From assembly GCA_000995965.1 (NCBI GenBank), contig LBYD01000002.1, forward strand, positions 199,889 to 263,888: a stretch of 64,000 bases of DNA. The letters are read 5' to 3'. The notes below the pieces were generated by a model that saw nothing but the letters and a program-made list of their open reading frames with translations, was not told the DNA's origin and searched no databases. The translations under genes and the position numbers were made by a program. The stretch's first letter is position 1, and each line of letters starts with the position of its first letter. This DNA is from Candidatus Moranbacteria bacterium GW2011_GWC2_40_12 (lineage in GTDB: Bacteria > Patescibacteriota > Minisyncoccia > Moranbacterales > UBA11712). This document shows positions 34,059 to 58,054 of the stretch, piece after piece.

Positions 34059-34182
34059 CCCCGCACCATTTTGGGTGAGTGGCGAAATTGGCATACGCAC
34101 TAGCCTTAGGAGCTAGCGGGGCGACCCATGGAGGTTCGAGTCCTCTCTCACCCAAAAAATTAGATCAAAAAATGGTGCGGGG
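34059..34182. repeat. Perfect 14-bp inverted repeats bracketing tRNA-Leu(TAG)
   Basis: ccccgcaccatttt (34059-34072) / aaaatggtgcgggg (34169-34182). Confidence 0.85.
34073..34154 (+). tRNA. tRNA-Leu(TAG)
   Basis: Acceptor GGGTGAG/CTCACCC; ctagc-ctTAGga-gctag; long variable arm. Confidence 0.95.
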
Positions 34183-34229
34183 CACACCAGCCCCCGCACT
34201 AAATTGCTCCGCAATTAGTGCGGGGTAAA

Positions 34230-34279
34230 CTTAGGAGCTAGCGCCGCAAGGCATGAGGGTTCAACTCCCTCCCTGCCCA
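34230..34279 (+). pseudogene. 3' half of a second tRNA-Leu(TAG)
   Basis: cttaggagctagcgccgcaaggcatgagggttcaactccctccctgccca; begins at the anticodon loop; acceptor strand differs from the intact copy. Confidence 0.85.
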
Positions 34280-34292
34280 CAAGATATTTCAA

Positions 34293-34364
34293 ATGGAGGT
34301 TTTTACCCCGACTTTACGTCGGGGCAAGTCCCTGCCTGCCGGCAGGCAGGCTCTCCCCGGCACA
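34293..34364 (+). pseudogene. 3' fragment of a third tRNA (Leu-like) with two palindromes inserted in the T-arm
   Basis: atggaggtt[..ccccgactttacgtcgggg]caagtc[cctgcctgccggcaggcagg]ctctccccggcac. Confidence 0.7.
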
Positions 34365-35072
34365 ATGCTCAAAATTATTTTTCAAAACAAAGGTTATATT
34401 GTCGTCAACAAGCCAGCGGGGCTGGCTGTTCACTCCGGCGTGGGGATCAAAGAAAAAACTCTGGTTGATTTTTTAGTCGACAAATTTCCCGAAATCAAAA
34501 ATGTTGGCGATGAGCCGGAAATGAGGCCGGGAATTGTTCACCGCCTCGACAAAGATACTTCCGGCGTGATGGTTGTGGCGCGAAATCAGAAAACTTTTGA
34601 ATATCTCAAAAACCTTTTCAAAAAGCGCGAAGTCGAAAAAAAATATCTGGCATTGGTTTATGGGGAGCTGAAAAACAAGGAAGGAAAAATTGAAGGAGAA
34701 ATGGGCCGGTCAAAAAGGGACTTCCGGAAACAATCTTTCGTAAGAGGAAAAGTCGAAGTCAGAAAAGAAAGGTATTCCCTGACGCATTATATGGTTATTA
34801 AAGAATTTGGGAATTATTCCCTTCTTGAAGTATCCCCGAAAACTGGCCGGACGCACCAAATCCGGGTCCATCTTCATTCTATTGGCCATCCAGTCGTGGG
34901 AGATAGAAAATATTCTTTCAAAGAATATAAGCGCCAAAAATGCGCTCGGATGTTCCTCCACGCAAATGAAATAGTATTTGTTGGCCAGGAAGGGAAAAAA
35001 ATGAGATTTGTTTCTCCCGCGCCAAAAGAAATGAAAGAGCATCTAGGCGGGGTTGACTGCGGAGGAAAATAA
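34365..35072 (+). CDS. RluA family pseudouridine synthase
   Basis: NKPAGL, HRLDKDTSG, TGRTHQIRVH motifs; start at ATG 34365. Confidence 0.95.
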   Translation: MLKIIFQNKGYIVVNKPAGLAVHSGVGIKEKTLVDFLVDKFPEIKNVGDEPEMRPGIVHRLDKDTSGVMVVARNQKTFEYLKNLFKKREVEKKYLALVYGELKNKEGKIEGEMGRSKRDFRKQSFVRGKVEVRKERYSLTHYMVIKEFGNYSLLEVSPKTGRTHQIRVHLHSIGHPVVGDRKYSFKEYKRQKCARMFLHANEIVFVGQEGKKMRFVSPAPKEMKEHLGGVDCGGK

Positions 35073-35124
35073 TTATATGATATACTGGCTTGTAAGAAGC
35101 GGTTTTTTTATTTAATCTAATACT

Positions 35125-35607
35125 ATGAAGAAGGTGACGGAATACAATCAAAAAGTGCGGGCCTCAAGAAAAATGCCCCAGCTGCGGTCCGGTGATATCG
35201 TTAAGGTGCATAGGAAAGTAAAAGAGGGAGAGAAAGAAAGAACGCAGGTCTTTGAAGGGATCATTATTTCCATAAAGGGAAAACAAAGCTCTTCACCAAT
35301 GATCACAGTGAGGAAAGTTTCTTTCGGAGTGGGAGTGGAGATTATCGTGCCAGTTTTTTCTCCGCTAATTGAAAAGATCGAAGTTATCAAGAAAGCGAAA
35401 ACAAAGCAATCGAAACTCTATTATCTCCGGCGCAAAGACTTCAAACTTTCGAAGCTCAAAATGAAAGAACTGGATAAATTTATTGCAGAAGACAAGGAAG
35501 AAGAGATAGAAGAGCCGCCTGAAGAGAAAGCTGAAAAAATTGGCGAGGGAGAAAACAATGTGGCAAAAAAAGAAATTGCTGAAGAGAAAGAGATTAAAAA
35601 AGATTAG
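35125..35607 (+). CDS. rplS: 50S ribosomal protein L19
   Basis: GDIVKVH, RTQVFEG, TVRKVSFGVGVE, KLYYLR; acidic tail. Confidence 0.96.
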   Translation: MKKVTEYNQKVRASRKMPQLRSGDIVKVHRKVKEGEKERTQVFEGIIISIKGKQSSSPMITVRKVSFGVGVEIIVPVFSPLIEKIEVIKKAKTKQSKLYYLRRKDFKLSKLKMKELDKFIAEDKEEEIEEPPEEKAEKIGEGENNVAKKEIAEEKEIKKD

Positions 35608-35621
35608 ATTTTTTATATCTT

Positions 35622-35705
35622 GCCGTGGTGCCGGAACTGGTAGACGGGCCAGCTTGAGGGGCTGGTGTCCATTAGGGCGTGGGAGTTCGAGTCTCCCCCA
35701 CGGCA
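35622..35705 (+). tRNA. tRNA-Leu(GAG)
   Basis: Acceptor GCCGTGG/CCACGGC; ccagc-ttGAGgg-gctgg. Confidence 0.95.
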
Positions 35706-35775
35706 CTCGAACAGGAAAATTATTCCTGTTGGAAAGCAGATGTTCTCACAAAATATATTTAGAAAGCAAAACGAC

Positions 35776-35849
35776 GGGCGCGTAGCTCAGTTGGTTAGAG
35801 CATCTGTCTTACAAACAGAGGGTCAGAGGTTCGAGTCCTCTCGCGCCCA
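35776..35849 (+). tRNA. tRNA-Val(TAC)
   Basis: Acceptor GGGCGCG/CGCGCCC; tctgt-ctTACaa-acaga. Confidence 0.96.
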
Positions 35850-35858
35850 CGAGTATAT

Positions 35859-35909
35859 GCCGGGCTAGCTCAGTCCCGCCAGAGGCGGATAAAGTCCGAG
35901 CAGAGGACT
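35859..35909 (+). pseudogene. 5' half of a tRNA-Phe with a palindrome in the D-loop
   Basis: gccgggctagctcagt[cccgccagaggcgga..]gagcagaggact; similarity ends at U33. Confidence 0.8.
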
Positions 35910-35946
35910 TGAGGTTAGCGTCGGAATTAACAATCGAATAATTTTT

Positions 35947-36314
35947 GCCGGGCTAGCTCAGTGGTAGAGCAGAAGACTGATTTTCGGTCCATTCCGCAGC
36001 GATGCGGAAAAGAAAAATCGGGTGAATTCGAGGAAACCTAATCTCCGACGTTATGTTGGAGCAGGGCAATCTCGAGCCAATCCTTCGCCGGGAGGCTACG
36101 GATTGCAAGCAAGCTAATTTTAGAAGGCTTGCCTGCCGTAGCTTTAGCGGAGGCAGGTGTAGAGACTAGCAGGTGAGTTCCAACAATAATCCTGCGCCAG
36201 CGCCCGACCGCTCCCTTCGCGAAGGGAGGGGATGAAATAGTCCGATCCTTGGGGAAACTCAAGCAAACGACGAGGAAAATCTTTGTGTGCCCAGTTCGAT
36301 TCTGGGGCCCGGCA
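35947..36314 (+). tRNA. tRNA-Phe(GAA), exons 35947-35978 and 36275-36314
   Basis: Joined exons give gaaga-ctGAAaa-tcttt; acceptor GCCGGGC/GCCCGGC. Confidence 0.9.
35979..36274 (+). ncRNA. Group I intron (296 nt, no ORF) after U33 of tRNA-Phe
   Basis: P1 gacu/gguc with U-G wobble; P aattcgaggaa; Q aatctcgagc; R gtagagacta; S gaaatagtcc; P3 tcgggtg/cgcccga; terminal G. Confidence 0.9.
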
Positions 36315-36388
36315 CAAACAATTTATAAACTACGCCAAAGCGGGATTGCCCGCCGAAGCCTGCCTGCCAGCAGGCAGGCGTAGCGCAG

Positions 36389-36460
36389 GCGGGTATCGTA
36401 TAGCGGCTATTATGTGTCCTTGCCAAGGACAAGATACGGGTTCGACTCCCGTTACCCGCT
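36389..36460 (+). tRNA. tRNA-Gly(GCC)
   Basis: Acceptor GCGGGTA/TACCCGC, U73; tgtcc-ttGCCaa-ggaca. Confidence 0.94.
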
Positions 36461-36516
36461 CACGAAACGAAAATCTTCTTCAGGGGATTTATGTTTCGCT
36501 GAAAATCAGAATTGGA

Positions 36517-36545
36517 TTGACAAGAATATTTTTCTGCGCTATACT
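36517..36545 (+). promoter_or_regulatory. Sigma70-type promoter
   Basis: TTGACA-N17-TATACT. Confidence 0.7.
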
Positions 36546-36646
36546 GTCATAGTGCCAATTTAAAATAAGGCACCCGAAATGAATAAAAACTACTTTCCAG
36601 CGAAGTTGTTTTTTGTTTTTCAAAAATTATAAAATAACATAAAAAT

Positions 36647-36811
36647 ATGTCAAAATTCGAACTTCTGAAACAACTGGAATATCTCATCGCCTTTCAGGCA
36701 AATTGTCTTGATAGCGGAGACTGGGAGAGTTTTGACAAGACGGAAAACGAGATAAAGAAGATTGAAGAAAGAATTATAAATTGGGATAAAAATATAGCCA
36801 ATATAGCGTGA
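36647..36811 (+). CDS. Small hypothetical protein (54 aa; below the ORF-track cutoff)
   Basis: MSKFELLKQLEYLIAFQANCLDSGDWESFDKTENEIKKIEERIINWDKNIANIA, downstream of a near-consensus promoter. Confidence 0.6.
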   Translation: MSKFELLKQLEYLIAFQANCLDSGDWESFDKTENEIKKIEERIINWDKNIANIA

Positions 36812-36852
36812 AACACTTGAATTTACCGTGAAACAATAGGCACCCGGGACGC

Positions 36853-36881
36853 TTGACATTTTTGGATTAGAGTGATATAAT
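36853..36881 (+). promoter_or_regulatory. Perfect sigma70 consensus promoter
   Basis: TTGACA-N17-TATAAT. Confidence 0.8.
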
Positions 36882-36998
36882 TGTCCGTTAAGTCCTGAAA
36901 AGGGCTTTTTTGATTGGAGAGCTTGCTCGACAATCAATCCGCCTTTGGCGGATAGGCCTGAAGTAAAGATTTAACTTTAACAATTCACTCATTTTGCC

Positions 36999-37550
36999 AT
37001 GCGTATTTTGGCGACGCTGGCTCTTTTGGGGGCAGTCTTCGCAAATCCTCAATTTTCCTCGAAGGCTTTGGCCCAGGGAGCCTCTGACCAAAATATAGAG
37101 CAAAAATCAAAAAGTGAATCAAATACAATTGAAAACAAGATAATTTCAGCAAATGATAATTTTATCGCTTCAGCTTATATTCCGGAAGTGAATCCCAAGA
37201 AGCTTGCGTATTTCGAACGATTGAGAAAAAATATCAAGCTAATTGACTATTCAAAGCTTCCCAGCGGCGATTTCACCATCAATGCTTCTGCCTATACGGC
37301 GGCGGCTGATGAGTGCGGAAAGTCAGACGGGATTACCGCCAGCGGACGGAAAGTTATGGAAGGCCGGACGCTCGCTTGTCCTCCGGGATATACTTTTGGA
37401 ACCAAGATTGAGATTGACGGAATGGGAACCTATGTCTGTGAGGACCGCGGCGGAGCGATCAAAGGAAACCACTTTGACATCTATGTTGAGACAAAAAAAC
37501 AAGCTTTCGCTTTCGGACGAAGAAATCTTTTGGCGAGAGTCGTGAAATAA
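36999..37550 (+). CDS. 3D domain-containing secreted protein
   Basis: Signal peptide; ASAYT, GITASG, FGTKIEI, EDRGGAIKGNHFDIY. Confidence 0.9.
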   Translation: MRILATLALLGAVFANPQFSSKALAQGASDQNIEQKSKSESNTIENKIISANDNFIASAYIPEVNPKKLAYFERLRKNIKLIDYSKLPSGDFTINASAYTAAADECGKSDGITASGRKVMEGRTLACPPGYTFGTKIEIDGMGTYVCEDRGGAIKGNHFDIYVETKKQAFAFGRRNLLARVVK

Positions 37551-37579
37551 ACAAACGCCCCCGATCGGGGGCGTTTGTT
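37550..37579. terminator. Bidirectional terminator (perfect palindrome)
   Basis: aacaaacgcccccgatcgggggcgtttgtt. Confidence 0.75.
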
Positions 37580-37662
37580 GTAATTAGCAATCTGCAATTT
37601 GTAATGCGGATAATAAAAGGAAAATCCCGATTACCAATTACGAATTGCCGGTTGCGATAAGA

Positions 37663-38250
37663 TCATTTTATTATCTTATCCACCACTCCATAATCCCTGG
37701 CTTCCTCCGCGCTCATGAAATAATCGCGGTCGGTGTCTTTTTCGATTCTTGAAAGAGACTGTCCGGTGTGCTTGGCCAGAATTTTGTTTATCCGATCCTT
37801 GGTCTTGATGATTTGCCTCGCGTGAATAGCCACGTCAGCTGCCTGTCCGGTCGCTCCTCCCATCACCTGATGAAGAAGGACTTCGCTGTTGGGGAGGCAC
37901 AGCCTTTTTCCTTTAGCGCCGGCGGTGAGAAGTAGTGCGCCTGCTGAAGCGGCGAGGCCAACACAGATTGTGGAAACATCGCACTTCACGTATTGCATCG
38001 TATCATAGATGGCAAGTGCCGCGCTCACCGACCCGCCGGGAGAGTTGACATAAATCCGGATGTCTTCTTTTGAATTTTGGTTATAGAGGAAAAGAAGCTG
38101 GGCAATGATTGAGTTGGCGACGTGGTCGTCAATCGGCCCGCCGAGAAAAATAATCCGTTCCTTGAGAAGCCGGGAATAAATGTCATACGCCCGCTCGCCA
38201 TAGGCGGTTTTTTCAATGACAGTGGGGATGAGAAGTTGGTTTTTGATCAT
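37663..38250 (-). CDS. clpP: ATP-dependent Clp protease proteolytic subunit
   Basis: [33 protein letters not shown]. Confidence 0.97.
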
Positions 38251-38372
38251 TTGAATTGAGAATCATGAATTGTGAATTCTGAATGTGAATATTGAATATT
38301 GAATTTAGTTAATGACTTTTTATTCTAAATTCTTTATTCTCATTCTCAATTCTAAATTCCCAATTCGCAATT
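38251..38372. repeat. Inverted heptamer-array element, family B
   Basis: tgaat/agaat heptamers facing attc heptamers; fills the tig-clpP spacer. Confidence 0.7.
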
Positions 38373-38375
38373 CTT

Positions 38376-39665
38376 TTACAATTTTTCTAAAAATTCAAAT
38401 ACTTTTTGATTTGTCAACGTGCCTTTTACATAATCATATAGCCTTTCCATATCAACATTTCTTTCCATATCTCGCTGGCCTTTGAAATAAGCAAGGGTCT
38501 TGTTCATCTCCTCTTCAATTTCGGCGCTCTCGGGGCTAAGATTTTCGAGCTTGGCGATTTCACGAAGAGCAAGGGCTGATTTCACCCTTTTTTCAGCGCT
38601 TTCTTTCCAGCTGTTTCGCACCTCGCTCCGAGTCTTCTTTATATTTACGAAATAGTCGTCCACTTTCATTCCCATTCCCGCGATATTCTGCTCAAATTCG
38701 GCCATCATTTTGTCGATTTCGTTTTCAAGGAGAATCTCCGGAATTTCCGTTTTGTAATCGGAGATTATTTTTTCAATAATCTCCTGCCGCCTTTTTTCCT
38801 TATTCTTTTTTCTCTGCTCTATTTCCATTCCTTCGAAGACGCTCTTTTTCAGACTTTCGAGGTTTTCAAATTTACCGAGGCTTTTGGCGAAGTCATCGTT
38901 CATTTCCGGAAGTATTTTTTCCTGCACGAGATTCATCTTCACTTTGAACTTGGCGGGCTTTCCGGCTAATTCTTTTTTGTGGTAATCTCTTGGGAACTCG
39001 AGGTCGAATTCTTTCTCGTCATTCGCCTTCATTCCAATGAGATTTTCCTCAAAACCGGGAATAAAGTAGCTCTCGCCGATGGTGAGCGGATGATTTTGGC
39101 TTTTTCCTCCTTCAATCCGCCGGCTGGCGGACTTTTCTTCAATCAAAAAAACATCGAAATCAATTTCGACATAATCATTTTTTCTTGCTTCACGCGAAAC
39201 AGTGATGAGTTTGGCCCGGCTTTTTCTCAAGATGTCGAGCTCTTTTTTGATTTCCTCCGGTTTGATTTTTTCCAGTTCACTTTTTTTGAGACCTTTGATG
39301 CTTTTTTTGTAGTCCCCCAGGCTGATTTCTGGCATTATGGCGATAACCGCCTTAAATTCGAGGTCGTTTCCGGGAGCAATTTTTGTGATGGTGATTTTTG
39401 GCTCTCCGATCGCCTCAATTTTGTTTTTTATGATCGATTCGGTATAGGTTTTTCTGACTGCTTTTTCGGCGGCGTGCGCCAAAACTTTTTCAGAACCAAC
39501 CTGTTGCTCAACTATTTTCCGAGGAGCTTTTCCGGGGCGGAATCCGGCTATTTTAAAATCTTTCGAAAGCTCTTCGGCGGCCATATCCAAAAATTTTTCA
39601 AGCTCTTTAGCCGGAACGGTGATCTTTAGTTCAAGCTGGGATTTAGGAAGTTTGCGAATGATCAT
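38376..39665 (-). CDS. tig: Trigger factor
   Basis: GFRPGKAP, FIPGFEENL, FPRDYH; upstream of clpP. Confidence 0.96.
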   Translation of the reverse strand: MIIRKLPKSQLELKITVPAKELEKFLDMAAEELSKDFKIAGFRPGKAPRKIVEQQVGSEKVLAHAAEKAVRKTYTESIIKNKIEAIGEPKITITKIAPGNDLEFKAVIAIMPEISLGDYKKSIKGLKKSELEKIKPEEIKKELDILRKSRAKLITVSREARKNDYVEIDFDVFLIEEKSASRRIEGGKSQNHPLTIGESYFIPGFEENLIGMKANDEKEFDLEFPRDYHKKELAGKPAKFKVKMNLVQEKILPEMNDDFAKSLGKFENLESLKKSVFEGMEIEQRKKNKEKRRQEIIEKIISDYKTEIPEILLENEIDKMMAEFEQNIAGMGMKVDDYFVNIKKTRSEVRNSWKESAEKRVKSALALREIAKLENLSPESAEIEEEMNKTLAYFKGQRDMERNVDMERLYDYVKGTLTNQKVFEFLEKL

Positions 39666-41659
39666 TAGACGATGAAACCGGCGATTAGAAGCGCCACAAT
39701 ATTGATTATCTTGATCATCGGGTTGATGGCCGGGCCAGCCGTATCCTTATATGGATCACCTACCGTGTCGCCGGTGACAGCCGCTTGGTGGGCGAGAGAT
39801 CCCTTTCCCCCATAATGTCCTTCTTCAATATATTTTTTGGCATTGTCCCAGGCGCCCCCTCCAGAAGTCATGGAAATCGCCACGAAAATTCCAGTGATGA
39901 TTGAGCCAACCAAAAGACCGCCCAGCGCCGCAGGACCCAAGATAAACCCGACCAGAATCGGAGCGGCAACCGGAAGAAGAGCTGGAACAATCATTTCTTT
40001 GATGGCCGCTTTGGTCACGATGTCAACACTTGTCGCGTAGTCAGGTTTGGCTGTTCCTTCAAGGAGTCCCTTGATTTCACGGAATTGCCTTCGAACTTCC
40101 TCAACCACGGCTCCGGCCGCTTTTGAGACTGCCCGCATGCAGATTGATCCGAAAAGATAAGGAATGAGTCCGCCGATGAAAAGTCCGATCAAAACATAAA
40201 CATCATCTAGCTGAAAGGTTATGTTTTTGGCGCCTTTTTCAGAAAGCTCCTGAACGTAGGAAGCGAAAAGAACCACGGCGGCCAGTCCAGCGGAAGCAAT
40301 AGCATATCCTTTCGTGACAGCTTTGGTAGTGTTTCCAACTGCGTCGAGCGCATCAGTCACTTTTCGGACTTCTTCATTCATGCCGGACATCTCCGCGATT
40401 CCGCCGGCATTGTCGGTGATTGGCCCGAACGAATCAATTGCGACGATGATGCCGGTCATCGAAAGCATGCTCATCACCGCGACCGCCACACCATAAAGGC
40501 CGGCGAGCCAGAAAGAGCCCAAAATTCCGGCAACAATGAGAATCACCGGGCCAGCGGTTGACTCCATGCTCATGGCGAGACCCATGATGATATTGGTTCC
40601 ATGTCCGGTCTTGGACGCTTTGGCAATTTCCTTTACTGGCCGGTATTTTTTGGAGGTGTAGTATTCGGTTATGATCACCATTCCGGCAGTTACAAAAATT
40701 CCAATTGCCGAAGCGAGGTATAGATTTGTAAAACTATAAAGCCCGTTTTCTCCCATCAGGCTTTTTGTTAGCGGATAAAAAACAACAAGCGAAATTGCAG
40801 AAGAAGCAATAAGCCCTTTATAAAGAGCGCCCATAATATTTTTCCCCCGGCCCAAGCGGACGAAATAAATTCCGATGATGGATGCAATGATTGAAACCGC
40901 TCCGATCATAAGAGGAAAGAAAATCGCGTTTGGAAAACTGGCAAAAGTAAGTGAACCCAAAATCATAGCCGCGATCGCCGTGACAGCGTATGTTTCAAAA
41001 AGATCAGCCGCCATCCCTGCGCAGTCTCCCACGTTATCTCCGACGTTGTCGGCAATCACAGCCGGGTTGCGGGGATCATCCTCGGGAATTCCAGCTTCAA
41101 TTTTTCCAACGAGATCTGCTCCAACGTCGGCCGCTTTGGTGAAAATGCCTCCGCCGAGCCGGGCAAAGACACTAATAAGACTTCCTCCGAATCCCACTCC
41201 GATAAGCGCTCTTACGTCTCCGGTTAAGAGATAAAAAACAGATACAACGAGAAGTCCAAGTCCGATTACCAGAAGGCCGGTGACCGCGCCTCCCTTGAAA
41301 GCAATATCAAGAGCGTTTCGAAGGCTCTTTTTGGCTCCTTCAGCTGTCCGAACATTGGCTCTTACTGCCACATTCATTCCGATATATCCGGCTAAGGCAG
41401 AAGCAACCGCGCCGATCAAAAATCCGACGGCTGTGTTGAAGCCAAGAAAAAAATAAAGAACCAATGCGACGGCGACTGCCACATAAGCGACAGTTTTATA
41501 TTGGCGGTTTAAAAAGGCCTTGGCGCCCTCTTTTATGGCACCGGCTATTTCAACCATTTTTCCTTCTCCCTCAGGAAAACTATTTACTTTCCAGCTCAGA
41601 TAAAGGGCGAAGGCAACGGCAATAAGCGATGCAGCGATGGGATAGAGTTCGATGTTCAT
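39665..41659 (-). CDS. hppA: Membrane-bound pyrophosphatase (probably K+-independent, H+-translocating)
   Basis: [26 protein letters not shown] (Lys signature), [10 protein letters not shown]. Confidence 0.95.
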
Positions 41660-41695
41660 TTTTTATGAATTAAGAATTAGGAATTATGAAACTAA

Positions 41696-48348: not shown

Positions 48349-48389
48349 GCCCCCGTAGTTCAATGACAAGGGACTCCTAAGCCCTAGAT
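48349..48389 (+). pseudogene. Truncated tRNA-Arg(CCT) (5' part with a 6-nt D-arm deletion)
   Basis: gcccccgtagttcaatg-acaagggactcctaagccctagat; no T-arm or 3' acceptor strand. Confidence 0.85.
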
Positions 48390-48414
48390 CCATGCCCGCC
48401 CGTTCACTTTTTTA

Positions 48415-48486
48415 CTCCTCATAGTTCAATGGATAGAACAAGGGACTCCTAAGCCCTAGATGCAGGTCCGATTCCTGCTGAGGAGA
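48415..48486 (+). tRNA. tRNA-Arg(CCT)
   Basis: Acceptor CTCCTCA/TGAGGAG; loop ctCCTaa; atypical T-loop TCCGATT and A31-G39 mismatch. Confidence 0.82.
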
Positions 48487-48544
48487 CAAAAAGTGTTCGG
48501 GTGAAACTCATGACGGGGACACATAAAATTTTTAAATTATAATT

Positions 48545-50461: not shown

Positions 50462-50560
50462 GAGGATTCGCGGGCCATTGTTTCAGGTTGTGATTTTCCA
50501 AAAAGAAAAACCCCAACCGCCGCGAGGGCAAGTTGGGGATAATTTAGGGCATTCAACCCT

Positions 50561-51082
50561 TTAAGATCTCAGTTCCATTTCTTGTTTTGCAATTTTCTTT
50601 TCTAGGTTGGTTAGATCTTCCTTTTCGCAAACCAGCCTTTCCTTGAGCCGAAGAACTTCGCGGATTTTGCAAAGTTTTTCCGCTAGTCTTCCCCCATCAT
50701 CAGTTGTTAAGGTATCTTGAACCAGAGGATCGAGAATGTCCGCAAACTCTGGTCTCTCCTTTATGATGGCTTGCGCATTTTGCGCAACCACTTCGGGAAG
50801 ATTTTCTTTCTCGGTTATGAGCGCTATAGACTTAATAAGCAGAAAAAACGACAAAGTGAACAAGGGAATCAGCCAATAGATTAAGTATTGGTCCAATGAA
50901 AGGGAAGCTAACAGGCTACCAACGGCTGCCTGCTCCGAAAGCTCCTTGTTCGACAGCGTGAGCTTGTAAAGAAGCAGCATCCCACTAACATCCGCAGCCG
51001 CAACAGAAACAGCAACAATAACAACCCTGATCCAAACGGCTGACCTCAACACCCATTTTTGCCAAGGCTTTAGTGTTTTCAT
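50561..51082 (-). CDS. Hypothetical membrane protein with C-terminal coiled coil
   Basis: SD aaaggag; two TM segments. Confidence 0.75.
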   Translation of the reverse strand: MKTLKPWQKWVLRSAVWIRVVIVAVSVAAADVSGMLLLYKLTLSNKELSEQAAVGSLLASLSLDQYLIYWLIPLFTLSFFLLIKSIALITEKENLPEVVAQNAQAIIKERPEFADILDPLVQDTLTTDDGGRLAEKLCKIREVLRLKERLVCEKEDLTNLEKKIAKQEMELRS

Positions 51083-51111
51083 GGCAGTCTCCTTTCGTTA
51101 GTTTGCAGTAT

Positions 51112-51204
51112 TTATCCTGCGAGCAGGTTCAACAACCAATGTATCAAAATCCAAATACCACCCAAACTCATACCGATTATAAAATACCATCCATGCGGTC
51201 GCAT
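51112..51204 (-). CDS. Putative 30-aa membrane peptide
   Basis: SD aggag followed by MRPHGWYFIIGMSLGGIWILIHWLLNLLAG. Confidence 0.45.
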   Translation of the reverse strand: MRPHGWYFIIGMSLGGIWILIHWLLNLLAG

Positions 51205-51393
51205 ATGCGCATTCTCCTGTTATCAAAGAATTTGCCAAACTATTTTTAGCCTGACTGGCTATTATATAAGATTATTCTATAGTAGTCAATAATAATATTA
51301 GTATATATTATTTATAATGGCTTATATAAAGCATTACTAAATATATTTGTCATAATTATTGACAATATGGCTATATTTTGCTAGGCTACTGGC

Positions 51394-52134
51394 ATGGACA
51401 ATGACCTATTGAAAACAATCGAATCCATCGGTTTTCGGCCGAAAGAATCGCAGGTATATTTGGCGCTTTTGGAATTGGGCACGGGAACTGTGTCGCAGAT
51501 AGCAAAAACGGCCGAGCTTAAGCGACCAGTGACTTATATAATTCTTGAAAACTTGATTGGGCAGGGATACGCGACGCAAGTTCCCGGAGGGAAAATAAAT
51601 CGCTATCAGGCAATCGATCCGTCGGCGATTCTCATTCGCCAAAAAACAAATCTCAAAAATTTTTCCGAAATGCTTCCCCTGCTTCAGACACTGCATAACA
51701 AGGGAAAACAGCGGCCGAAGATTCATTATGTCGAAACAAAAGAAGGAATAGAAGATATTTATGAAAGTCTGAATTACGCGAAGGAAGCTTTCTATGTCTC
51801 CTCCTATAAAAAACTTCATGAGCATTTTCCAAAAAAAGTTGAAGAGTGGATGAAAGACTATGGCAAGGGAATATACAATGTGGATGCCAAGCATATCATT
51901 CCGGACGATCCCGAAGAATTGAAATTCGGAAAAACATATGCCGAAAGCGGTCAGAAAGTCAGAATTTTGCCAAAACAAAAAAATTTCGATACGGATATTG
52001 TTTTAACAGAGAATAAATTTTCGGTATCTTCGCTTGAAGAAGAACCCTTTTTGGTTTTGATAGAATCAGAAAAACTGGCAAAGTCTCTCAAGCCGCTTTT
52101 CGAAATAATTTGGGAAGCGAGCCGGGAAATTTGA
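51394..52134 (+). CDS. TrmB family transcriptional regulator
   Basis: N-terminal wHTH (ESQVYLALLELG...RPVTY) and effector domain. Confidence 0.88.
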   Translation: MDNDLLKTIESIGFRPKESQVYLALLELGTGTVSQIAKTAELKRPVTYIILENLIGQGYATQVPGGKINRYQAIDPSAILIRQKTNLKNFSEMLPLLQTLHNKGKQRPKIHYVETKEGIEDIYESLNYAKEAFYVSSYKKLHEHFPKKVEEWMKDYGKGIYNVDAKHIIPDDPEELKFGKTYAESGQKVRILPKQKNFDTDIVLTENKFSVSSLEEEPFLVLIESEKLAKSLKPLFEIIWEASREI

Positions 52135-52164
52135 AATATATCTTTGCCGTGTTAGGATAAATTT

Positions 52165-53736
52165 ATGGTCAAGAAAATTCCGAAACCCATAATCGAAATT
52201 ATCCAAAAACTCGAAGCCGCTGGTTTTGAGGCTTTTGTCGTGGGCGGGTGCGTTCGGGACTTGCTGATGGGCGTTGAGCCCAAGGATTGGGACGTGACGA
52301 CAAACGCAAAGCCGGAGGAAGTATCAAAATTATTTCCGGATAGTTTTTATGAGAACAAGTTTGGGACGGTAGGTGTAAAGATTCCGAAGCTTACGAATCA
52401 AAGCTCGGCTTTACCCTCGCGAGAGCGGAGCTCTCGCGATTCCTCAAAGCCAAGCTTTTCAGAAGTTGTTGAAGTGACAACCTATCGAATCGAAAGCAAG
52501 TATTTGGACAAGCGGCATCCGGATGAGGTGCGGTTCGCGAAGACGCTCGAAGAGGATTTATCGAGGCGGGATTTTACGATCAATGCGCTGGCACTTAAAA
52601 TCGTTAATTCTGATTTTGAAATAGTGGATCTCTTCGATGGCCAGAAAGATCAGAAGAAAAATATAATTCGGGCAGTGGGAAATGCGAACGAGCGTTTTGA
52701 TGAGGATGCGCTTCGAATGATGCGGGCAATTCGTTTTGCGACAACACTCACAAATGAAAGCGAAGTAAAGCGAAGCAGAGCGAATAGTGGCCCAAGAAAA
52801 TTAGCAAAGAAAACACCATTTGAGATTGAAGAAAAAACGAAAAAAGCAATTGCAAAGAATGCGAAAAACTTGAAACATATCGCTCTCGAAAGAATCCAGG
52901 ATGAGCTGAACAAAATCATGCTGTCTGATTTTGCGGCGGAAGGAATTGAACTTTTGCGCGAACTAAAATTATTGCAATATATCATTTCCGAGCTTGAGAA
53001 AGGCTATGGCGTCGGCCAAAACCGGCACCATATCTATACCATCTGGGAGCACTCGATTTTGTCCCTCAAAAATTGCCCGTCGGAAAAGTTGGAAGTTAGA
53101 TTAGCAACCCTTTTACATGACATTGCGAAGCCCGATACGAAAAGAGGCGAAGGCGCTTATTCGACATTCTATAATCACGACCATGTCGGAGCGCGGGTGG
53201 TCGAAAAAATTTTGAAACGCTTGAAATATTCTTCGGACATAATCAAAAAAGTTCGATTGCTTGTCGATAATCATATGTTCTACTACAACGTTGAGGAAGT
53301 GGGGGCTTCGAGTGTGCGGCGCCTCGTGAAAAAAGTGGGACTTGAAAACATCGATGACCTCATTGATCTTCGCGTGGGTGACCGGCTGGGAAGCGGCGTG
53401 CCCAAAGCCGTGCCGTACAAGCTCCGCCATTTCAAATATATGGTCGACAAGATTTCAAGCGACCCGCTCTCGGTCAAAATGCTGAAAGTCAACGGCAACG
53501 ATTTGATGCGTGAATTGAAACTCAAACCAGGCCCGATGCTCGGAGCGATTTTAGACGTGCTTCTTTCGGAAGTTATAGAAAATCCAGAGGAAAACAAAAA
53601 AGATATATTGCTGAACCGAGCGAAAGAACTCGCAAAAGAAAACTTGACGAAACTTCGTGAGATGGCGAAGGAGAAAATTGAAGAGAAAAAAGAAGAAGAA
53701 GACAAAGAGATTAAGAGCAAGTATTGGGTCAAGTGA
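52165..53736 (+). CDS. cca: tRNA nucleotidyltransferase (CCA-adding family) with HD domain
   Basis: VGGCVRD, KDWDV, RRDFTINA, EDALRMMRA, LLHDIAKP; two repeat-like insertions. Confidence 0.94.
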   Translation: MVKKIPKPIIEIIQKLEAAGFEAFVVGGCVRDLLMGVEPKDWDVTTNAKPEEVSKLFPDSFYENKFGTVGVKIPKLTNQSSALPSRERSSRDSSKPSFSEVVEVTTYRIESKYLDKRHPDEVRFAKTLEEDLSRRDFTINALALKIVNSDFEIVDLFDGQKDQKKNIIRAVGNANERFDEDALRMMRAIRFATTLTNESEVKRSRANSGPRKLAKKTPFEIEEKTKKAIAKNAKNLKHIALERIQDELNKIMLSDFAAEGIELLRELKLLQYIISELEKGYGVGQNRHHIYTIWEHSILSLKNCPSEKLEVRLATLLHDIAKPDTKRGEGAYSTFYNHDHVGARVVEKILKRLKYSSDIIKKVRLLVDNHMFYYNVEEVGASSVRRLVKKVGLENIDDLIDLRVGDRLGSGVPKAVPYKLRHFKYMVDKISSDPLSVKMLKVNGNDLMRELKLKPGPMLGAILDVLLSEVIENPEENKKDILLNRAKELAKENLTKLREMAKEKIEEKKEEEDKEIKSKYWVK

Positions 53737-53863
53737 ATGCAAATCTCAAAATGAAAAATGACAATGAAAAATGTAAAATTTTTGAATAATAAAATGATTT
53801 TGGCATTTAATCACTTTGAATTTTGAATTGTAATTTCACATTTTGATTTTTTAATTTTGCATT
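53737..53863. repeat. Inverted heptamer-array element, family A
   Basis: aaatgacaatgaaaaatgtaaaatt ... ttgtaatttcacattttgattttttaattttgca. Confidence 0.75.
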
Positions 53864-53869
53864 TTTATT

Positions 53870-54478
53870 GTGGCTTTTCAAATATCCCACGTTGTCTACG
53901 CGAAAAAATATCTTGAACAACATCCCGGAATGAATGCCGATTTATTTTTGCTGGGAACATTGCTTCCGGATGTCCGGCGGGTGACAGATGAAGTCAAAAG
54001 AAAGGACACGCATGTGCTGCATGAGGAACTCAATCTTGAGTTTCACGGAGCCACGGCATTTGAGGCCGGATGGAAATTCCATCTCTGGTGCGATATGCGG
54101 CGGGAAGATATTCTAAACAAGCACGGATTTTATTCGCTTAAATATACGACTGCGCTTGATTCAGTGAATAAATTGCTTGAGGACGAATTGGTTTATGAAA
54201 AATACCAAAATTGGGAGAAGCTGCGCTGGCTTCTCAACAATCCGCCGGAAATAAAAACCGGTCTCGATGTCGCGCAGGAAACCATCGGGCGCTGGTATGC
54301 TATTCTTGCCAAATACTTTGAAAAAAAACCGGATGAAAAAACAATGCGCGCGTTTTTGTGGAAGCAGAGAAAATTGCGCGGGCAAATAGGCGAAATCATT
54401 GACGCTTTGAAAAAGTTGAGGGAGAATAAAAAGGCAGTGGAAATACTGTCCAAGGTTTCTGAAGAGATATTGGAGTAA
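53870..54478 (+). CDS. Hypothetical protein (zinc-dependent phospholipase C/P1-like fold possible)
   Basis: SH near N-terminus, LGTLLPDV, TH, GWKFHLWCD. Confidence 0.7.
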   Translation: MAFQISHVVYAKKYLEQHPGMNADLFLLGTLLPDVRRVTDEVKRKDTHVLHEELNLEFHGATAFEAGWKFHLWCDMRREDILNKHGFYSLKYTTALDSVNKLLEDELVYEKYQNWEKLRWLLNNPPEIKTGLDVAQETIGRWYAILAKYFEKKPDEKTMRAFLWKQRKLRGQIGEIIDALKKLRENKKAVEILSKVSEEILE

Positions 54479-54492
54479 CATTTTATTTGGGA

Positions 54493-54861
54493 ATGATGAA
54501 AATTTATTTTGGACATTCAAAAGGATTTGATTATAAGAAAGAATTATATGAGCCGATTCGGGAAAGTGAGCTCAACATCCGGCACGAAATTATTTTCCCC
54601 CACGAAAAAAGCGAGATGCCGACGAATTCAAAAGAATTTTTGAAAACATGCGATTTAATGTTTGCCGAACTGTCATATCCCGCGACTGGACTAGGCATTG
54701 AACTTGGATGGGCAGACGCGCTCGGTGTTTCGATTGTCGGAATTTATAAATCCGGTTCGCACGTTTCCAATTCGGTAAAACTTCTGACCAAGAATTTCAT
54801 TGAATATTCCAATTCAGAGGATATGGTGAAAAAAATAGAAAGATTTATCAACGGGCTGTAG
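54493..54861 (+). CDS. Nucleoside 2-deoxyribosyltransferase-like protein
   Basis: KIYFGHS, CDLMFAE, TGLGIELGWA. Confidence 0.75.
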   Translation: MMKIYFGHSKGFDYKKELYEPIRESELNIRHEIIFPHEKSEMPTNSKEFLKTCDLMFAELSYPATGLGIELGWADALGVSIVGIYKSGSHVSNSVKLLTKNFIEYSNSEDMVKKIERFINGL

Positions 54862-54881
54862 TGTATCGGCAACACGCGCGA
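54852..54881 (+). pseudogene. 5' half of a tRNA-Pro-like gene
   Basis: cgggctgtagtgtatcggcaacacgcgcga; stops at the anticodon loop. Confidence 0.7.
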
Positions 54882-54898
54882 CCCGCCCTGTTAAATAT

Positions 54899-55086
54899 CG
54901 GGACATAGTATACCGGTAGTACACACGACGCGCCCCGCACCAAAAATATCGGGCTGTGGTATAGTGGCATTACGCACGATTCGGGTTCGTGTAATCCGAG
55001 TTCGATTCTCGGCAGCCCGAAAGCGGTATTTTGGTGCTAGGGTGAAGGTTCGTGTAGACTGGGTTCGATTCCCAGTGTCCCGACCA
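54899..55086 (+). pseudogene. Outer tRNA-Pro split in its anticodon loop (halves 54899-54928 and 55047-55086)
   Basis: Acceptor CGGGACA/TGTCCCG plus ACCA; D, anticodon (cacga/tcgtg) and T (ctggg/cccag) stems all intact; loop replaced by a 118-nt insert. Confidence 0.9.
54950..55020 (+). tRNA. tRNA-Pro(CGG), nested inner copy
   Basis: Acceptor CGGGCTG/CAGCCCG; cacga-ttCGGgt-tcgtg; T-arm ccgag/ctcgg. Confidence 0.93.
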
Positions 55087-55108
55087 ATCCAAATATTAAA
55101 AGAACATT

Positions 55109-55522
55109 ATGAAAATTGGAGTCATTAGCAGTATGCAAAATTCAGAGAAGATGATAGAAGTATGCAGCACTTTGAAAAAAATGGGGCACATTGCTTTTGC
55201 TTCAAAGTTCGCGCCTTCGATGGTTGGAAAATCAGACGAAGAGAAAGAAAAAATGAAACTGAACCAAAAGTATAATATGGACGCCATTCGAGAATTTTGG
55301 AAAGCAATGCAGGGAGCAGACGCCGTGTTAGTTTTGAATCTTGATAAAAATGGGATGAAGAACTACATCGGCGGAAATACTTTTTTGGAAATGGGATTCG
55401 CTCATGTATTAAACCAAAAAATATTTTTATATAATCCCATTCCCGAAAATCCATTTTACCAGACTGAAATTATTGCAATGAATCCGATTGTCATAAGCAG
55501 GGACTTATCTTTGATTAAATAA
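55109..55522 (+). CDS. Hypothetical protein, nucleoside deoxyribosyltransferase-like fold
   Basis: DAVLVLN, YIGGNTFLEMGFA. Confidence 0.75.
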   Translation: MKIGVISSMQNSEKMIEVCSTLKKMGHIAFASKFAPSMVGKSDEEKEKMKLNQKYNMDAIREFWKAMQGADAVLVLNLDKNGMKNYIGGNTFLEMGFAHVLNQKIFLYNPIPENPFYQTEIIAMNPIVISRDLSLIK

Positions 55523-55523
55523 T

Positions 55524-55727
55524 ATGGAATGCCAAAAAGAAAAAAATCTTGAATCTTGCCCTTGCACCTATCCGGGATGCGCGAAAAAAGGATTATGCTG
55601 CGAGTGCGTGAAACATCATCGGGAAAAAGGCGCGCTGCCTGCCTGCTATTTTTCACCCGAAGCCGAGAAAACATACGACCGGTCAATTGAAAATTTTGTG
55701 AGAGACTGGGAAAAATATTCAAAATAA
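55524..55727 (+). CDS. Small Cys-rich protein (DUF6485-like)
   Basis: CPCTYPGC..KGLCCEC..H...LPACYF. Confidence 0.78.
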   Translation: MECQKEKNLESCPCTYPGCAKKGLCCECVKHHREKGALPACYFSPEAEKTYDRSIENFVRDWEKYSK

Positions 55728-55766
55728 TTATTGGAAATATTTGTATTAATATATACAAAGTGTATA

Positions 55767-56108
55767 ATGAAGAAAGACAAGCATAAAAATATGACGGATA
55801 ATAAACAAAAAAGAGATTCAGAAGAACATGGAATAGACTGGAAAGAAAAGATTGAAGGGTATTTGGGGGAATTTGCCAAAAATTTAGCCGGTGGATTTGT
55901 GGAAAGGATTAAGGTTCAGCTTCACAACATATATGTTTCGGCGCAGAAGCATGTTCTTGGGATGTTTTTTATTCTAGTCGGTTTTGTTTTCTCCTTGATC
56001 GCGATTGTAATTTTCATCAACGATCTCATTAAAATCAGCAACGGAATCGGATACGCGGCGGTCGGTTTTTTTGCTTTCGCAGTCGGATTAATTATAATTA
56101 AAAAGTAA
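55767..56108 (+). CDS. Two-TM membrane protein (YqjE/holin-like; start uncertain)
   Basis: Two C-terminal TM helices; paired with the ElaB-like gene. Confidence 0.65.
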   Translation: MKKDKHKNMTDNKQKRDSEEHGIDWKEKIEGYLGEFAKNLAGGFVERIKVQLHNIYVSAQKHVLGMFFILVGFVFSLIAIVIFINDLIKISNGIGYAAVGFFAFAVGLIIIKK

Positions 56109-56115
56109 AAATAAC

Positions 56116-56340
56116 ATGAACAAAAAGGAAGCCAAGAAAAAAGTGGAAACAATGAAAAATAACGTGAAAGTTTTCGCGCAGAAGGAGCTTGCCAAAGCCA
56201 AAGCTGAAATGGCGAAAGCGGGAAAGAAAGTGGAAGAATACGTGAAAAAGAATCCGGAAAAAGCGGCCATCATCTCGGCCGGCATCGGCGCGGCACTTGG
56301 AGCGGCGATTGCAGCATTGATTGTCAGGAAGAAAAAATAA
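56116..56340 (+). CDS. ElaB/YqjD/DUF883-like tail-anchored protein
   Basis: YVKKNP followed by C-terminal TM and basic tail. Confidence 0.75.
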   Translation: MNKKEAKKKVETMKNNVKVFAQKELAKAKAEMAKAGKKVEEYVKKNPEKAAIISAGIGAALGAAIAALIVRKKK

Positions 56341-56363
56341 ATCAAAAAAAATTGAATATGGCG

Positions 56364-56391
56364 AACTCCGGCTAAAAAAAGCCGGAGTTTT
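56364..56391 (+). terminator. Intrinsic terminator
   Basis: aactccggct / agccggagtt followed by T-tract. Confidence 0.65.
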
Positions 56392-56443
56392 ACTTTTTCA
56401 ATGATATTCGTTAGTATTTTATTGTTACATTAGATGAAGCAAT

Positions 56444-56743
56444 ATGAAATTTGTCATCGAAAATCCATCAACGAGTGTCGCAACTTTTTTCCGCCGGGCA
56501 GGATACGTTTTCCAAAAGCGCGAAGGGGAGGAGATGGCGTTCGTGCGGCGCCTCACCGACCAGCCTTTTCCGCGTTTTCATCTTTTTGTGAAAATTGTGG
56601 ATTATAAATTTTATGTGAATTTTCATATTGACCACAAGGCGGCGAGTTATGAAGGGACGAGCATGCACAGCGGAGAATACGGCGAAGATAGCAAGTTGCT
56701 GCAGGATGAAGCGGAAAGATTGAAAAACTTTTCTAGTGATTAG
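56444..56743 (+). CDS. Conserved hypothetical protein
   Basis: 99 aa; FPRFH, HIDHK, HSGEY motifs. Confidence 0.75.
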   Translation: MKFVIENPSTSVATFFRRAGYVFQKREGEEMAFVRRLTDQPFPRFHLFVKIVDYKFYVNFHIDHKAASYEGTSMHSGEYGEDSKLLQDEAERLKNFSSD

Positions 56744-56753
56744 GATATGTTTT

Positions 56754-56827
56754 GGGCTTATCGTATAGTGGTAATACGCCGCATTCGCATTGCGGAAACG
56801 CGAGTTCGATTCTCGCTAAGTCCACCA
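56754..56827 (+). tRNA. tRNA-Ala(CGC), CCA encoded
   Basis: Acceptor GGGCTTA/TAAGTCC (G3-U70); ccgca-ttCGCat-tgcgg. Confidence 0.93.
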
Positions 56828-56838
56828 AACAGAAAAAT

Positions 56839-56857
56839 GGAGAGGTGCCAGAGTGGT
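56839..56857 (+). pseudogene. 5' fragment of a tRNA-Ser
   Basis: ggagaggtgccagagtggt is a typical tRNA-Ser 5' end through the D-loop GG; 11 nt after tRNA-Ala. Confidence 0.65.
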
Positions 56858-56891
56858 AGATATAATGCTTCTCGTATGGTATGATTGTTGC

Positions 56892-57887
56892 ATGAGAGTT
56901 AGATTATCAAAAAAGAGCTTAGAAATCTTGTTTAATACAGTAGAAGCCAAATATAAAAGGTGGGTGACTATTGCTAATAAGAATAAAGTTTCCGTGAGAA
57001 CATTGAGCGATTGGAGAAAAGGAGAAATATCGATGCCCCTTTTAGTTTTTCGGAAAATACTAGCGGATTGTGATTTAAAAGAAGAAAAAGTTTCCTTTAC
57101 AATTTTATCTGATTTTTGGCACACTAAGGATGCCGGCAGAAAAGGAGCCGCGGCGGCAATGAAATTATACGGAAATTTTGGAACTCCCGAGGGGAGGAAA
57201 TTAGGTGGACAGAGATCCATTGCCACTCACAAAAAGAGGCAAACAGCCTTTAAAACTTTGAAGCCCATCGCGAAGCCGAAACATTCGAAGAAATTAGCAG
57301 AATTGCTCGGAATTTTTGTTGGTGATGGACATTTATCTGATTACCAGGCTAGTGTTTGCACCAATTCAAAGACTGACAAAGAACATGCAATGTTGACCTC
57401 AAAATTGATTAAAAGTTTATTTCGAGTCCCTGTTTCTTTAAGGGAACTAAAAAATGAAAACACGATTATCGTTGTCGCATCTTCAGTGTCTGTCGTCAAA
57501 TTTCTCAATAAACAGGGCATGCCGCAAGGAAATAAATTAAAAAACAATCTGACTGTTCCAGGATGGATAATAAAAAAAAGAACTTATCAAAAAGCTTTTC
57601 TGCGAGGATTGTTTGATACGGATGGCTGTATATATTTAGATAAACATAAAATTAATAAGAAACGATACAATCACTTGGGATGGGCGGTTACAAGTTACGC
57701 AGAAAAACTGAGAAAAGATGTAATGGAAATTCTTGCAAATCTTGGATATTCTCCAACCAACAGAGATACTCAAAAATCAGTTTATTTAAGAAAGCAAAAA
57801 GAAATCGCAAAATATTTTCGAGAAATTGGCACGAATAATTCAAAACATTTGACCCGATACAGGAAATTTATAAAATTAACTCAATAA
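56892..57887 (+). CDS. Free-standing two-motif LAGLIDADG homing endonuclease with N-terminal HTH
   Basis: VSVRTLSDWRKG HTH; LAELLGIFVGDG and FLRGLFDTDG; AT-rich; ATG 56892. Confidence 0.9.
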   Translation: MRVRLSKKSLEILFNTVEAKYKRWVTIANKNKVSVRTLSDWRKGEISMPLLVFRKILADCDLKEEKVSFTILSDFWHTKDAGRKGAAAAMKLYGNFGTPEGRKLGGQRSIATHKKRQTAFKTLKPIAKPKHSKKLAELLGIFVGDGHLSDYQASVCTNSKTDKEHAMLTSKLIKSLFRVPVSLRELKNENTIIVVASSVSVVKFLNKQGMPQGNKLKNNLTVPGWIIKKRTYQKAFLRGLFDTDGCIYLDKHKINKKRYNHLGWAVTSYAEKLRKDVMEILANLGYSPTNRDTQKSVYLRKQKEIAKYFREIGTNNSKHLTRYRKFIKLTQ

Positions 57888-57966
57888 TAAATTCGACACG
57901 GAGTGTTCTGAAGGGCAAGGTACTGTGTCGTCCCGCACCAAAAATAAATATTCAAAAGATTTCAAT

Positions 57967-58054
57967 GGAGGTGTGCGAGAGTTGGCTGAATCGGGCAGTC
58001 TCGAAAACTGCTGTGCCGGAAACGGCACCGAAGGTTCGAATCCTTCCACCTCCG
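57967..58054 (+). tRNA. tRNA-Ser(CGA)
   Basis: Acceptor GGAGGTG/CACCTCC, G73; gcagt-ctCGAaa-actgc; long variable arm. Confidence 0.95.

Follow-up and report, generated by a model that had tools for sequence, protein, structure and literature searches.

We examined a stretch of 64,000 nucleotides (the window) from the genome of Candidatus Moranbacteria bacterium GW2011_GWC2_40_12, in which several transfer RNA (tRNA) genes are accompanied by broken copies of the same type and, at three loci, the working gene lies on a short cassette with one half of an older gene on each side. The genome, labelled G000, is 1.14 Mb in size in 10 contigs and 97% complete, and the window covers G000:C2:199889-263888. 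Compared genomes are labelled G001, G002 etc., and individual loci carry L numbers. Coordinates refer to the window unless a contig is given, and the parts of the Leu-TAG, Phe-GAA, Arg-CCT, Pro-CGG and Ser-CGA loci are on the plus strand apart from the cassette at Leu-TAG, which is on the minus strand.

The three loci are Leu-TAG, Arg-CCT and Pro-CGG, where the working genes each ride a cassette of 111-128 bp with inverted ends. Read from its 5' side, the Leu-TAG locus begins with an eroded relic of an older tRNA-Leu(TAG) (34043..34054), which corresponds to the D arm of the gene that G008 carries as its only, intact copy (L006), and continues with a cassette of 128 bp (34055..34182) that has a TRAA end (34055-34058) and inverted repeats (34059-34068 and 34173-34182) and is also present in G002 and partly in G001. 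The cargo is the intact tRNA-Leu(TAG) gene (34073..34154; ARAGORN, RF00005 55.8 bits). Then follow the remainder of a middle tRNA-Leu relic (34183..34279), whose 3' part scores as Leu and whose anticodon stem is interrupted in turn by an empty element of 38 bp (34192-34229), and the 3' relic of the oldest tRNA-Leu(TAG) allele (34293..34363), which aligns to the 3' end of the G008 gene and differs from it by two hairpin insertions (34302-34324 and 34331-34350).

At Arg-CCT, the 5' half of an older tRNA-Arg(CCT) with a partly deleted D arm (48349..48394) is followed by a cassette of 111 bp in its T loop (48395..48505), with degenerate inverted ends and a TGAA end, that holds the intact tRNA-Arg(CCT) gene (48415-48487). 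The 3' end of the older gene (48506..48521) pairs with positions 48349-48355 in the predicted fold, in which the cassette ends are paired and the inner cloverleaf is intact (z -5.1). The Pro-CGG locus starts with the 5' half of the oldest allele, A (54852..54881), the aligned half of which shows no difference from the gene present as a single intact copy in G014 (L060), followed by the 5' half of allele B (54899..54928), identical in 30/30 bases to the single intact gene of G001 (L049). A cassette of 118 bp in the anticodon loop of allele B (54929..55046; predicted fold z -4.0) carries the intact allele C (54950-55020), and beyond it lies the 3' half of allele B including CCA (55047..55086), in which all 37 compared bases are identical to the G001 gene. 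In total there are three layers of tRNA alleles at Leu-TAG, three at Pro-CGG and two at Arg-CCT, and the relic stretches at these loci are full of other hairpin families and carry deletions.

The halves are separated from the working gene by the inverted repeats CCCCGCACCA and TGGTGCGGGG, or degenerate forms of them, and one end is tagged by TGAA or TAAA. A previous interpretation made from the letters alone (the sequence-only reading) had pointed to a motif preceding the intact tRNA at three loci, and exact copies of CCCGCACCA are indeed located at 34060, 54934 and 57932. Its claim that the reverse complement follows the tRNA at Leu and Pro is correct for Leu (34173), while the copy at Pro is imperfect (55032-55046) and perfect in G003 and G017. 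At the third of these loci, Ser-CGA, only a left cassette end was recognised from its sequence (57931..57944), and neither a reverse copy of the motif nor a right end was found after the tRNA-Ser gene. Genome-wide, 5 of the 21 exact motif copies lie <150 bp from a tRNA gene, a zone that makes up 1.25% of the genome (binomial p 5e-6), so the motif is enriched at tRNA genes. Positions 3027-3089 are occupied by another member of this family, 63 bp long, which carries no cargo and has ends that vary slightly.

ARAGORN identified 11 contiguous tRNA genes in the window. The sequence-only reading had counted 12, but the twelfth, Phe-GAA, is not contiguous since it contains a group I intron of 296 nt (RF00028). 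The broken copies of the same type that it listed at Leu-TAG, Phe-GAA, Arg-CCT, Pro-CGG and Ser-CGA were all recovered, and Val-GAC brings the total to 6/12 tRNAs. As it had noted, the acceptor stem of the relic differs from that of the working gene at Leu, Pro, Arg and Ser when the loci are read directly; that of the Phe relic is identical to the working gene. The breaks are not mostly at the anticodon loop, as had been suggested, but in the D arm and then the anticodon at Leu, the T loop at Arg, the D loop at Ser and the anticodon at Pro. To quantify the association, we set the threshold of a relic scan from null windows placed away from tRNAs. Low-stringency ARAGORN runs with introns allowed gave mostly false calls. 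Genome-wide, 14 of the 17 tRNA-like flank fragments above the strict threshold matched the amino acid of the neighbouring tRNA (null mean 1.4, max 7), and such fragments were found at 12/45 loci in G000. The tRNA-Val(GAC) gene at 18271 is followed by a hairpin and the 3' relic of a different tRNA-Val (18370-18419).

The order of events can be read from the relatives. For Pro-CGG, allele A alone is present in G014 and G004, allele B alone in G001 and allele C alone in G015, G005 and G016. Allele C is nested in allele A in G003, the 5' halves of A and B precede C in G000 and G002, with the B 3' half retained in G000, and C lies between the A 5' half and the B 3' half in G017; in G007 a B-like gene is followed by the right end and then the A 3' half. 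Likewise, the outermost Leu-TAG relic matches the single gene in G008, the Leu-GAG gene that is intact in G000 is the outermost of three layers in G002, and the Arg-CCT allele that a cassette interrupts in the T loop in G000 is interrupted at a different position in G002 (L154), by another gene or cassette. Since the relic alleles (Pro A and B, Leu) occur in relatives as single intact genes, the relics represent former resident genes. The tRNA genes have been serially replaced, and the loci are not misassembled. For the Leu relics, the stretch is covered without differences by contigs from four runs that carry no mark as a possible source, with no single piece spanning it all, and since the cassette junctions are also identical in several other genomes, misassembly is excluded. 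At the Arg, Pro and Ser loci, the genome comparisons argue against it. No RNA dataset was listed for the Leu-Phe stretch, which carries no information on its expression.

The cassettes belong to a widespread family. The right end TGGTGCGGGGTRAA was found in 24/151 genomes of the order and in 12/18 family relatives, with one match for the reversed control. Scanning a species collection for elements of 102-132 bp yielded 121 stretches, with an estimated number of about 140, and 47 of the 80 titled records holding an element name Patescibacteria lineages. A tRNA-Thr cassette was present in one record titled Ignavibacteria and cargo-less elements in six titled Nitrospirota, for which the binning or titles are possibly wrong. 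The pooled set comprised 174 distinct elements ending with CCCCGCACCA...TGGTGCGGGG-TRAA for which both ends and enough flanking sequence were available, some of them orthologous and hence not independent. A whole tRNA gene is the cargo in 62/174, in either orientation (37 and 25). The flanks score best against the amino-acid type of the cargo in 48 of these 62 (mean 6.4, max 18 in 10,000 shuffles), and judged by eye those of the other 14 also look like matching tRNA halves; no cassette at a neutral or non-tRNA-like host site was seen among the tRNA-bearing elements examined. Five of five checked elements with 5S ribosomal RNA (rRNA) cargo hold a complete gene in flanks that are 5S-like by eye, and two elements (L381, L387) represent a cassette nested in a cassette. 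None of the 112 cargo-less elements is located inside a tRNA gene, the two with tRNA-like flanks both being beside a tRNA, and their interiors are not decayed tRNAs (0/112 tRNA-like). A short GC-rich central motif is common to 13 of these 112, of 112-116 bp and with otherwise unrelated interiors (L094, L121, L124, L125, L127, L134 and L148 among them). L355, at first a candidate cassette, is instead a group I intron located in 16S rRNA.

For the analysis of junctions, we selected the 25/62 sites with a good alignment on either side. All 25 have a G before the break, and the breaks are in the D loop, the anticodon arm or the T loop. When the 4 bases before the repeat are counted as part of the element, 4 host bases were lost in 11 sites, 2 in 7 and 5-12 in 7. 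These 4 bases are mostly CNYG in the tRNA-bearing and mostly TRAA in the cargo-less elements, and the same 4-mer is found on the right side in 45/49 cargo-less elements with a left TRAA, as counted on filled sites alone. The insertions delete conserved loop bases, namely TTCG at T loops and also at the Pro anticodon. The losses bear on the possibility that the cassettes are a new type of intron, with the paired ends excised and the outer halves ligated to give two tRNAs. In the predicted precursor, the outer cloverleaf is indeed kept, and the insert forms a single long stem. Nevertheless, the conserved loop bases have been removed, and the outer halves contain deletions and extra hairpins or are wholly lost in relatives, which makes this explanation extremely unlikely.

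Near-identical ends frame several small GIY-YIG genes fetched from relatives. A metagenome scan for exact ends around a frame of 250-310 bp gave 73 stretches, 62 of them distinct, and in 25/62 a single GIY-YIG frame of 80-90 residues, recognised by a simple motif test, fills the space between the repeats; the remaining matches are chance matches, RNA-gene cassettes or decayed copies. Among 401 genomes of the class, 8 of the 12 repeat-bounded places of 270-500 bp are GIY-YIG genes. Full elements and close variants are located in 23S and 16S rRNA genes, in RNase P RNA and at gene starts. At the gene starts (L321, L334, L346, L347 and L383) the right end appears by eye to provide a new in-frame start codon. 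We also collected 91 small GIY-YIG frames from 90 regions of the 125 listed matches plus G000, of which 35 are repeat-bounded when other repeat types are included (1/69 for random frames), while 34 are followed by a tRNA, 14 of them with a fragment of the same type upstream, and only 1/91 scored as both. In a tree of 112 proteins inferred with a quick method from 85 columns, all 30 proteins with CAC-type ends fall into one branch of 49 members (SH-aLRT 94; label clustering 0/500 shuffles), and 11 proteins with CGTC-type repeats branch apart from it. Judged by these sequences, the GIY-YIG gene between the shared ends is the likely helper of the cassettes, and we consider the chances of an enzymatic link between the two to be about even.

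Hairpin ends with a 4-base tag resemble the ends of repetitive extragenic palindromic (REP) sequences and of IS200/IS605 elements, and a host HUH transposase (Y1 or REP type) is another candidate for the mover. G000 contains six Y1 genes and the element ends recall those of REP and IS200/IS605, yet by eye all six are flanked by different repeats of their own and none by this motif, and the gene that actually lies between the ends is a GIY-YIG gene. We therefore regard an HUH-driven movement as very unlikely. Each of the Y1 genes, which encode 214-225 residues, has its own short palindromic REP-like flanking repeat.

The nesting, the order of events, the match of cargo to host and the shared ends are direct observations. 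To account for them we somewhat favour a reading in which a family of tiny mobile elements has a full form with nothing but a small GIY-YIG gene between the same ends, and the cassettes are its non-autonomous members, which nest into cognate genes. The ends would fold into a hairpin, and a nuclease supplied in trans would cut single-stranded DNA beside it, likely during DNA uptake. We infer this step because the Ssn GIY-YIG nucleases, as described in the available text of PMC11893778, cut single-stranded DNA beside their own flanking hairpin and act during transformation, because the breaks sit in loops, and because genes for ComEC and DprA are present in G000. The resemblance of the cargo to the resident gene would guide the cassette to the cognate locus, where the released piece would join at the loop, 3' of a G, with the loss of a few bases. 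Such guidance by homology fits, since cassettes kept by selection alone would be expected at neutral sites too, where none were seen. The cell would survive as the cargo stands in for the destroyed gene, with transcription likely starting at the old promoter and the cargo then being released by trimming; the inner cloverleaf is kept on a long stem in the predicted precursor, which on this model is a plausible substrate for ordinary trimming. The dead halves would gather more hairpins, and the new gene would be open to further invasion. More tentatively, elements of about 285 bp may use the lone GIY-YIG protein as a transposase, and their gene-less forms may bring a whole tRNA or 5S gene into the resident gene homologous to it, with the cargo itself as the guide.

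Several observations weigh against this reading. The weakest step of the model is the targeting of cognate genes only, and the cargo is closer to the host halves than is the median tRNA with the same anticodon in only 36/58 cases. The tRNA-bearing elements lack the 4-bp direct repeat of the cargo-less ones and have a foreign CNYG 4-mer instead, and because of this they may insert by a different route. A nuclease and a tRNA were found together in none of the 12 longer repeat-bounded places in the 401 genomes, two of which are partly masked. The protein tree comes from a quick method on 85 columns, its 49-member branch includes 10 tRNA-adjacent proteins, and none of the six small GIY-YIG genes in G000 is repeat-bounded or falls within that branch. 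Since G000 has no repeat-bounded GIY-YIG gene, its cassettes may have been inherited or spread by plain homologous recombination. Finally, we know of no GIY-YIG protein with DNA-joining activity.

Some of these points fit a scenario in which empty hairpin elements hit tRNA genes, a foreign hairpin-flanked tRNA is captured by rare illegitimate recombination, selection keeps only the cognate captures and ordinary homologous recombination following DNA uptake spreads the locus, with no dedicated mover. An identical cassette with allele C is found at the same junction in four related genomes, G000 has uptake genes and is without the helper nuclease, and the relics are rich in other hairpin families. 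On the other hand, exact symmetrical ends surround tRNA and 5S cargoes that are unrelated to one another, in dozens of cases and in many lineages, the junction signature is constant and the cassettes were seen only in tRNA-like hosts, all of which indicates a repeated and specific process and makes rare capture an unlikely explanation.

The Ser-CGA locus contains, as the sequence-only reading had recognised, a LAGLIDADG gene. A 19-base 5' tRNA-Ser fragment (56839..56857), which scores 34 for Ser against 22 for the next type and is close to the intact Ser(CGA) gene of G001, precedes a gene for a 331-residue protein with two motifs (56892..57887; PF14528, E 7e-13), located at residues 135 and 236 with the acidic residues kept. 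The left cassette end and the intact tRNA-Ser(CGA) gene (57967..58054; ARAGORN, Rfam) follow, and a candidate second Ser relic between the LAGLIDADG gene and the left end (57900-57930) has a score of 24, inside the background range. All 17 homologous loci adjoin a tRNA gene, 13 of them directly before tRNA-Ser or tRNA-Tyr and four weak ones after tRNA-Leu(CAA), and the closest homologue, with 58% identity, precedes a plain tRNA-Ser(CGA). The gap between Ala-CGC and Ser-CGA is 1139 bp here versus 3-626 bp in 10 other genomes, in none of which the gene would fit. Intact nuclease motifs and presence or absence at the orthologous site are features of free-standing homing endonucleases, and both were found. 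The proposed link of LAGLIDADG to the motif failed, since the motif is present at only 1/13 of the LAGLIDADG loci directly before a tRNA, namely the one in the window, and frames small GIY-YIG genes instead; LAGLIDADG was thus rejected as its partner. From the arrangement of 5' tRNA fragment, nuclease gene and whole tRNA, this is a separate, independent cassette linked to tRNA-Ser, which by analogy likely spreads by homing. Before tRNA-Ser(GCT) (L076, L065-L067, L077), the start of the LAGLIDADG gene resembles the 5' end of a tRNA-Ser that has become ribosome-binding site and start codon, with weak scores, and by eye another LAGLIDADG gene lies in an insertion near the 3' end of a 16S rRNA gene (G000 C2:389456-390095).

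The LAGLIDADG cassette belongs to a second class together with five of the six small GIY-YIG genes in G000, which also sit between a 5' tRNA fragment and a whole tRNA. These five are located at C1:206560-207400, C2:85150-85900, C3:40750-41420, C1:133600-134250 and C5:31000-31700, next to tRNAs Tyr, Ser-GGA, Gln-TTG, Gln-CTG and Asn. Proteins linked to tRNAs tend to cluster by tRNA type in the tree, with eight Trp-linked ones together. In addition, a helix-turn-helix-like open reading frame lies by eye between a degenerate 5' tRNA-Gly fragment and tRNA-Gly(TCC) (G000 C2:270640-271350), which adds a third type of protein to this arrangement.

The existence of this class is what speaks for the model of the sequence-only reading, in which a selfish cassette of nuclease and tRNA cuts a host gene, spreads by homing together with a resistant copy and is afterwards left without its nuclease. 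Small GIY-YIG genes followed by tRNAs, including those in relatives (34/91), and LAGLIDADG homologues directly before tRNA-Ser or Tyr (13/17) show that nuclease-tRNA cassettes are real, and the phage homing enzyme SegB, also of the GIY-YIG family, recognises the T arm of tRNA genes according to the available text of PMC2330249. The part of the claim that stands is the serial replacement of host tRNAs by diverged copies, with the motif as the cassette end. The nuclease-tRNA cassettes are not bounded by the repeats, and later loss of a nuclease as the origin of the relics is argued against by the lack of any intermediate with both nuclease and tRNA in the 12 longer repeat-bounded places, two of them partly masked. 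Nor is resistance of the incoming gene to cutting supported, as the incoming genes have normal loops and are themselves invaded again. We consider this model improbable.

In the literature searched, which lay largely outside subscription journals, we found neither nested replacement tRNAs nor this element described; the supplements of PMC11893778 and PMC11270868 may list such proteins or insertions. In tRNA-dependent lysogeny, a host tRNA is similarly disrupted and a same-isotype tRNA is brought by the element, but in mycobacteriophage Fionnbharth, as described in the available text of PMC10865867, the whole prophage inserts by a tyrosine integrase at a fixed attB. The cassettes are about 110 bp in size without a protein gene, use variable sites in the D, anticodon and T loops, form stacked layers and also carry 5S genes; they contain no tyrosine integrase, and G000 has its four tyrosine recombinase genes at other locations.

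The Ssn system shares with the repeat-bounded genes a single-domain GIY-YIG gene with its own flanking hairpin repeat and has gene-less repeat copies across the genome, a layout noted as IS-like by its authors (PMC11893778). The repeat is of another type (NTS/SRM hairpins), and the separate branch of the CGTC-type proteins, used as stand-ins chosen by eye, suggests from sequence that the repeat-bounded proteins are placed outside the Ssn cd10448 clade. The main text of PMC11893778 contains no match for tRNA, Patescibacteria or CPR (Candidate Phyla Radiation) and reports cutting rather than mobility or cargo. Closest to the second class, and by analogy to its LAGLIDADG cassette, is SegB of phage T4, described in the available part of PMC2330249 as a free-standing GIY-YIG homing endonuclease that recognises tRNA genes and spreads with neighbouring ones. 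It acts in phage crosses by a double-strand cut, with neither inverted ends nor a gene nested in a split copy of itself. GIY-YIG genes have also been reported in non-intron, not homing-like insertions in CPR rRNA genes (PMC11270868), which resemble the repeat-bounded gene in 23S rRNA and the close variants in 16S rRNA and RNase P RNA described here. The available text of that paper mentions no tRNA, inverted repeat or palindrome, and leaves ends, gene-less copies and cargo undescribed.

The cassettes further resemble miniature inverted-repeat transposable elements (MITEs) in having terminal inverted repeats and no transposase gene. MITEs, mobile insertion cassettes and Rickettsia palindromic elements are short and non-autonomous with inverted ends, some lie in frame in genes and some carry cargo, and their movers are DDE or HUH transposases. 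We know of no cargo matched to the interrupted gene in any of them. The tRNA-bearing form differs in lacking a duplication and in losing host bases, and the full form encodes only a GIY-YIG protein and no DDE or HUH transposase. Integrase islands leave tRNA fragments beside an intact gene and rebuild the resident gene from a near-identical fragment, whereas here a complete gene with another acceptor stem takes over from a cassette that has no integrase.

Transfer RNA genes are usually regarded as stable genes that are inherited vertically and serve passively as landing sites. Here their turnover, by foreign alleles that overwrite them repeatedly, affects no fewer than 12 of the 45 loci in one reduced genome, which accounts for the unusual tRNA fragments, the remains of 5S genes and the non-intron insertions in rRNA that are found in assemblies of Patescibacteria. 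If the GIY-YIG protein of 85 residues is what moves the cassettes, it would represent a new type of transposition enzyme and a cargo-delivery system of very small size, and the tRNA set of the Patescibacteria would be continuously rewritten by a minimal, self-targeting vector for gene replacement.

The Phe-GAA locus is a different case, with a 5' duplicate that has the same acceptor stem and a hairpin in its D loop (35859..35910; present in G002, G003 and G008) located before the intron-bearing gene (35947..36315; ARAGORN i(34,296)). The intron is inserted after position 33, at about 35979-36274, and matches RF00028 with 57 bits, above the cut-off. It is also present in G003 and G032 and absent from most relatives shown. 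It is the only RF00028 match in the window, and no such core was found in the cassettes. A cluster near the transfer-messenger RNA gene (G000 C4:66837-67045) comprises two unusual tRNA-like genes, whose anticodon loops are abnormal, together with the 3' fragment of a tRNA.

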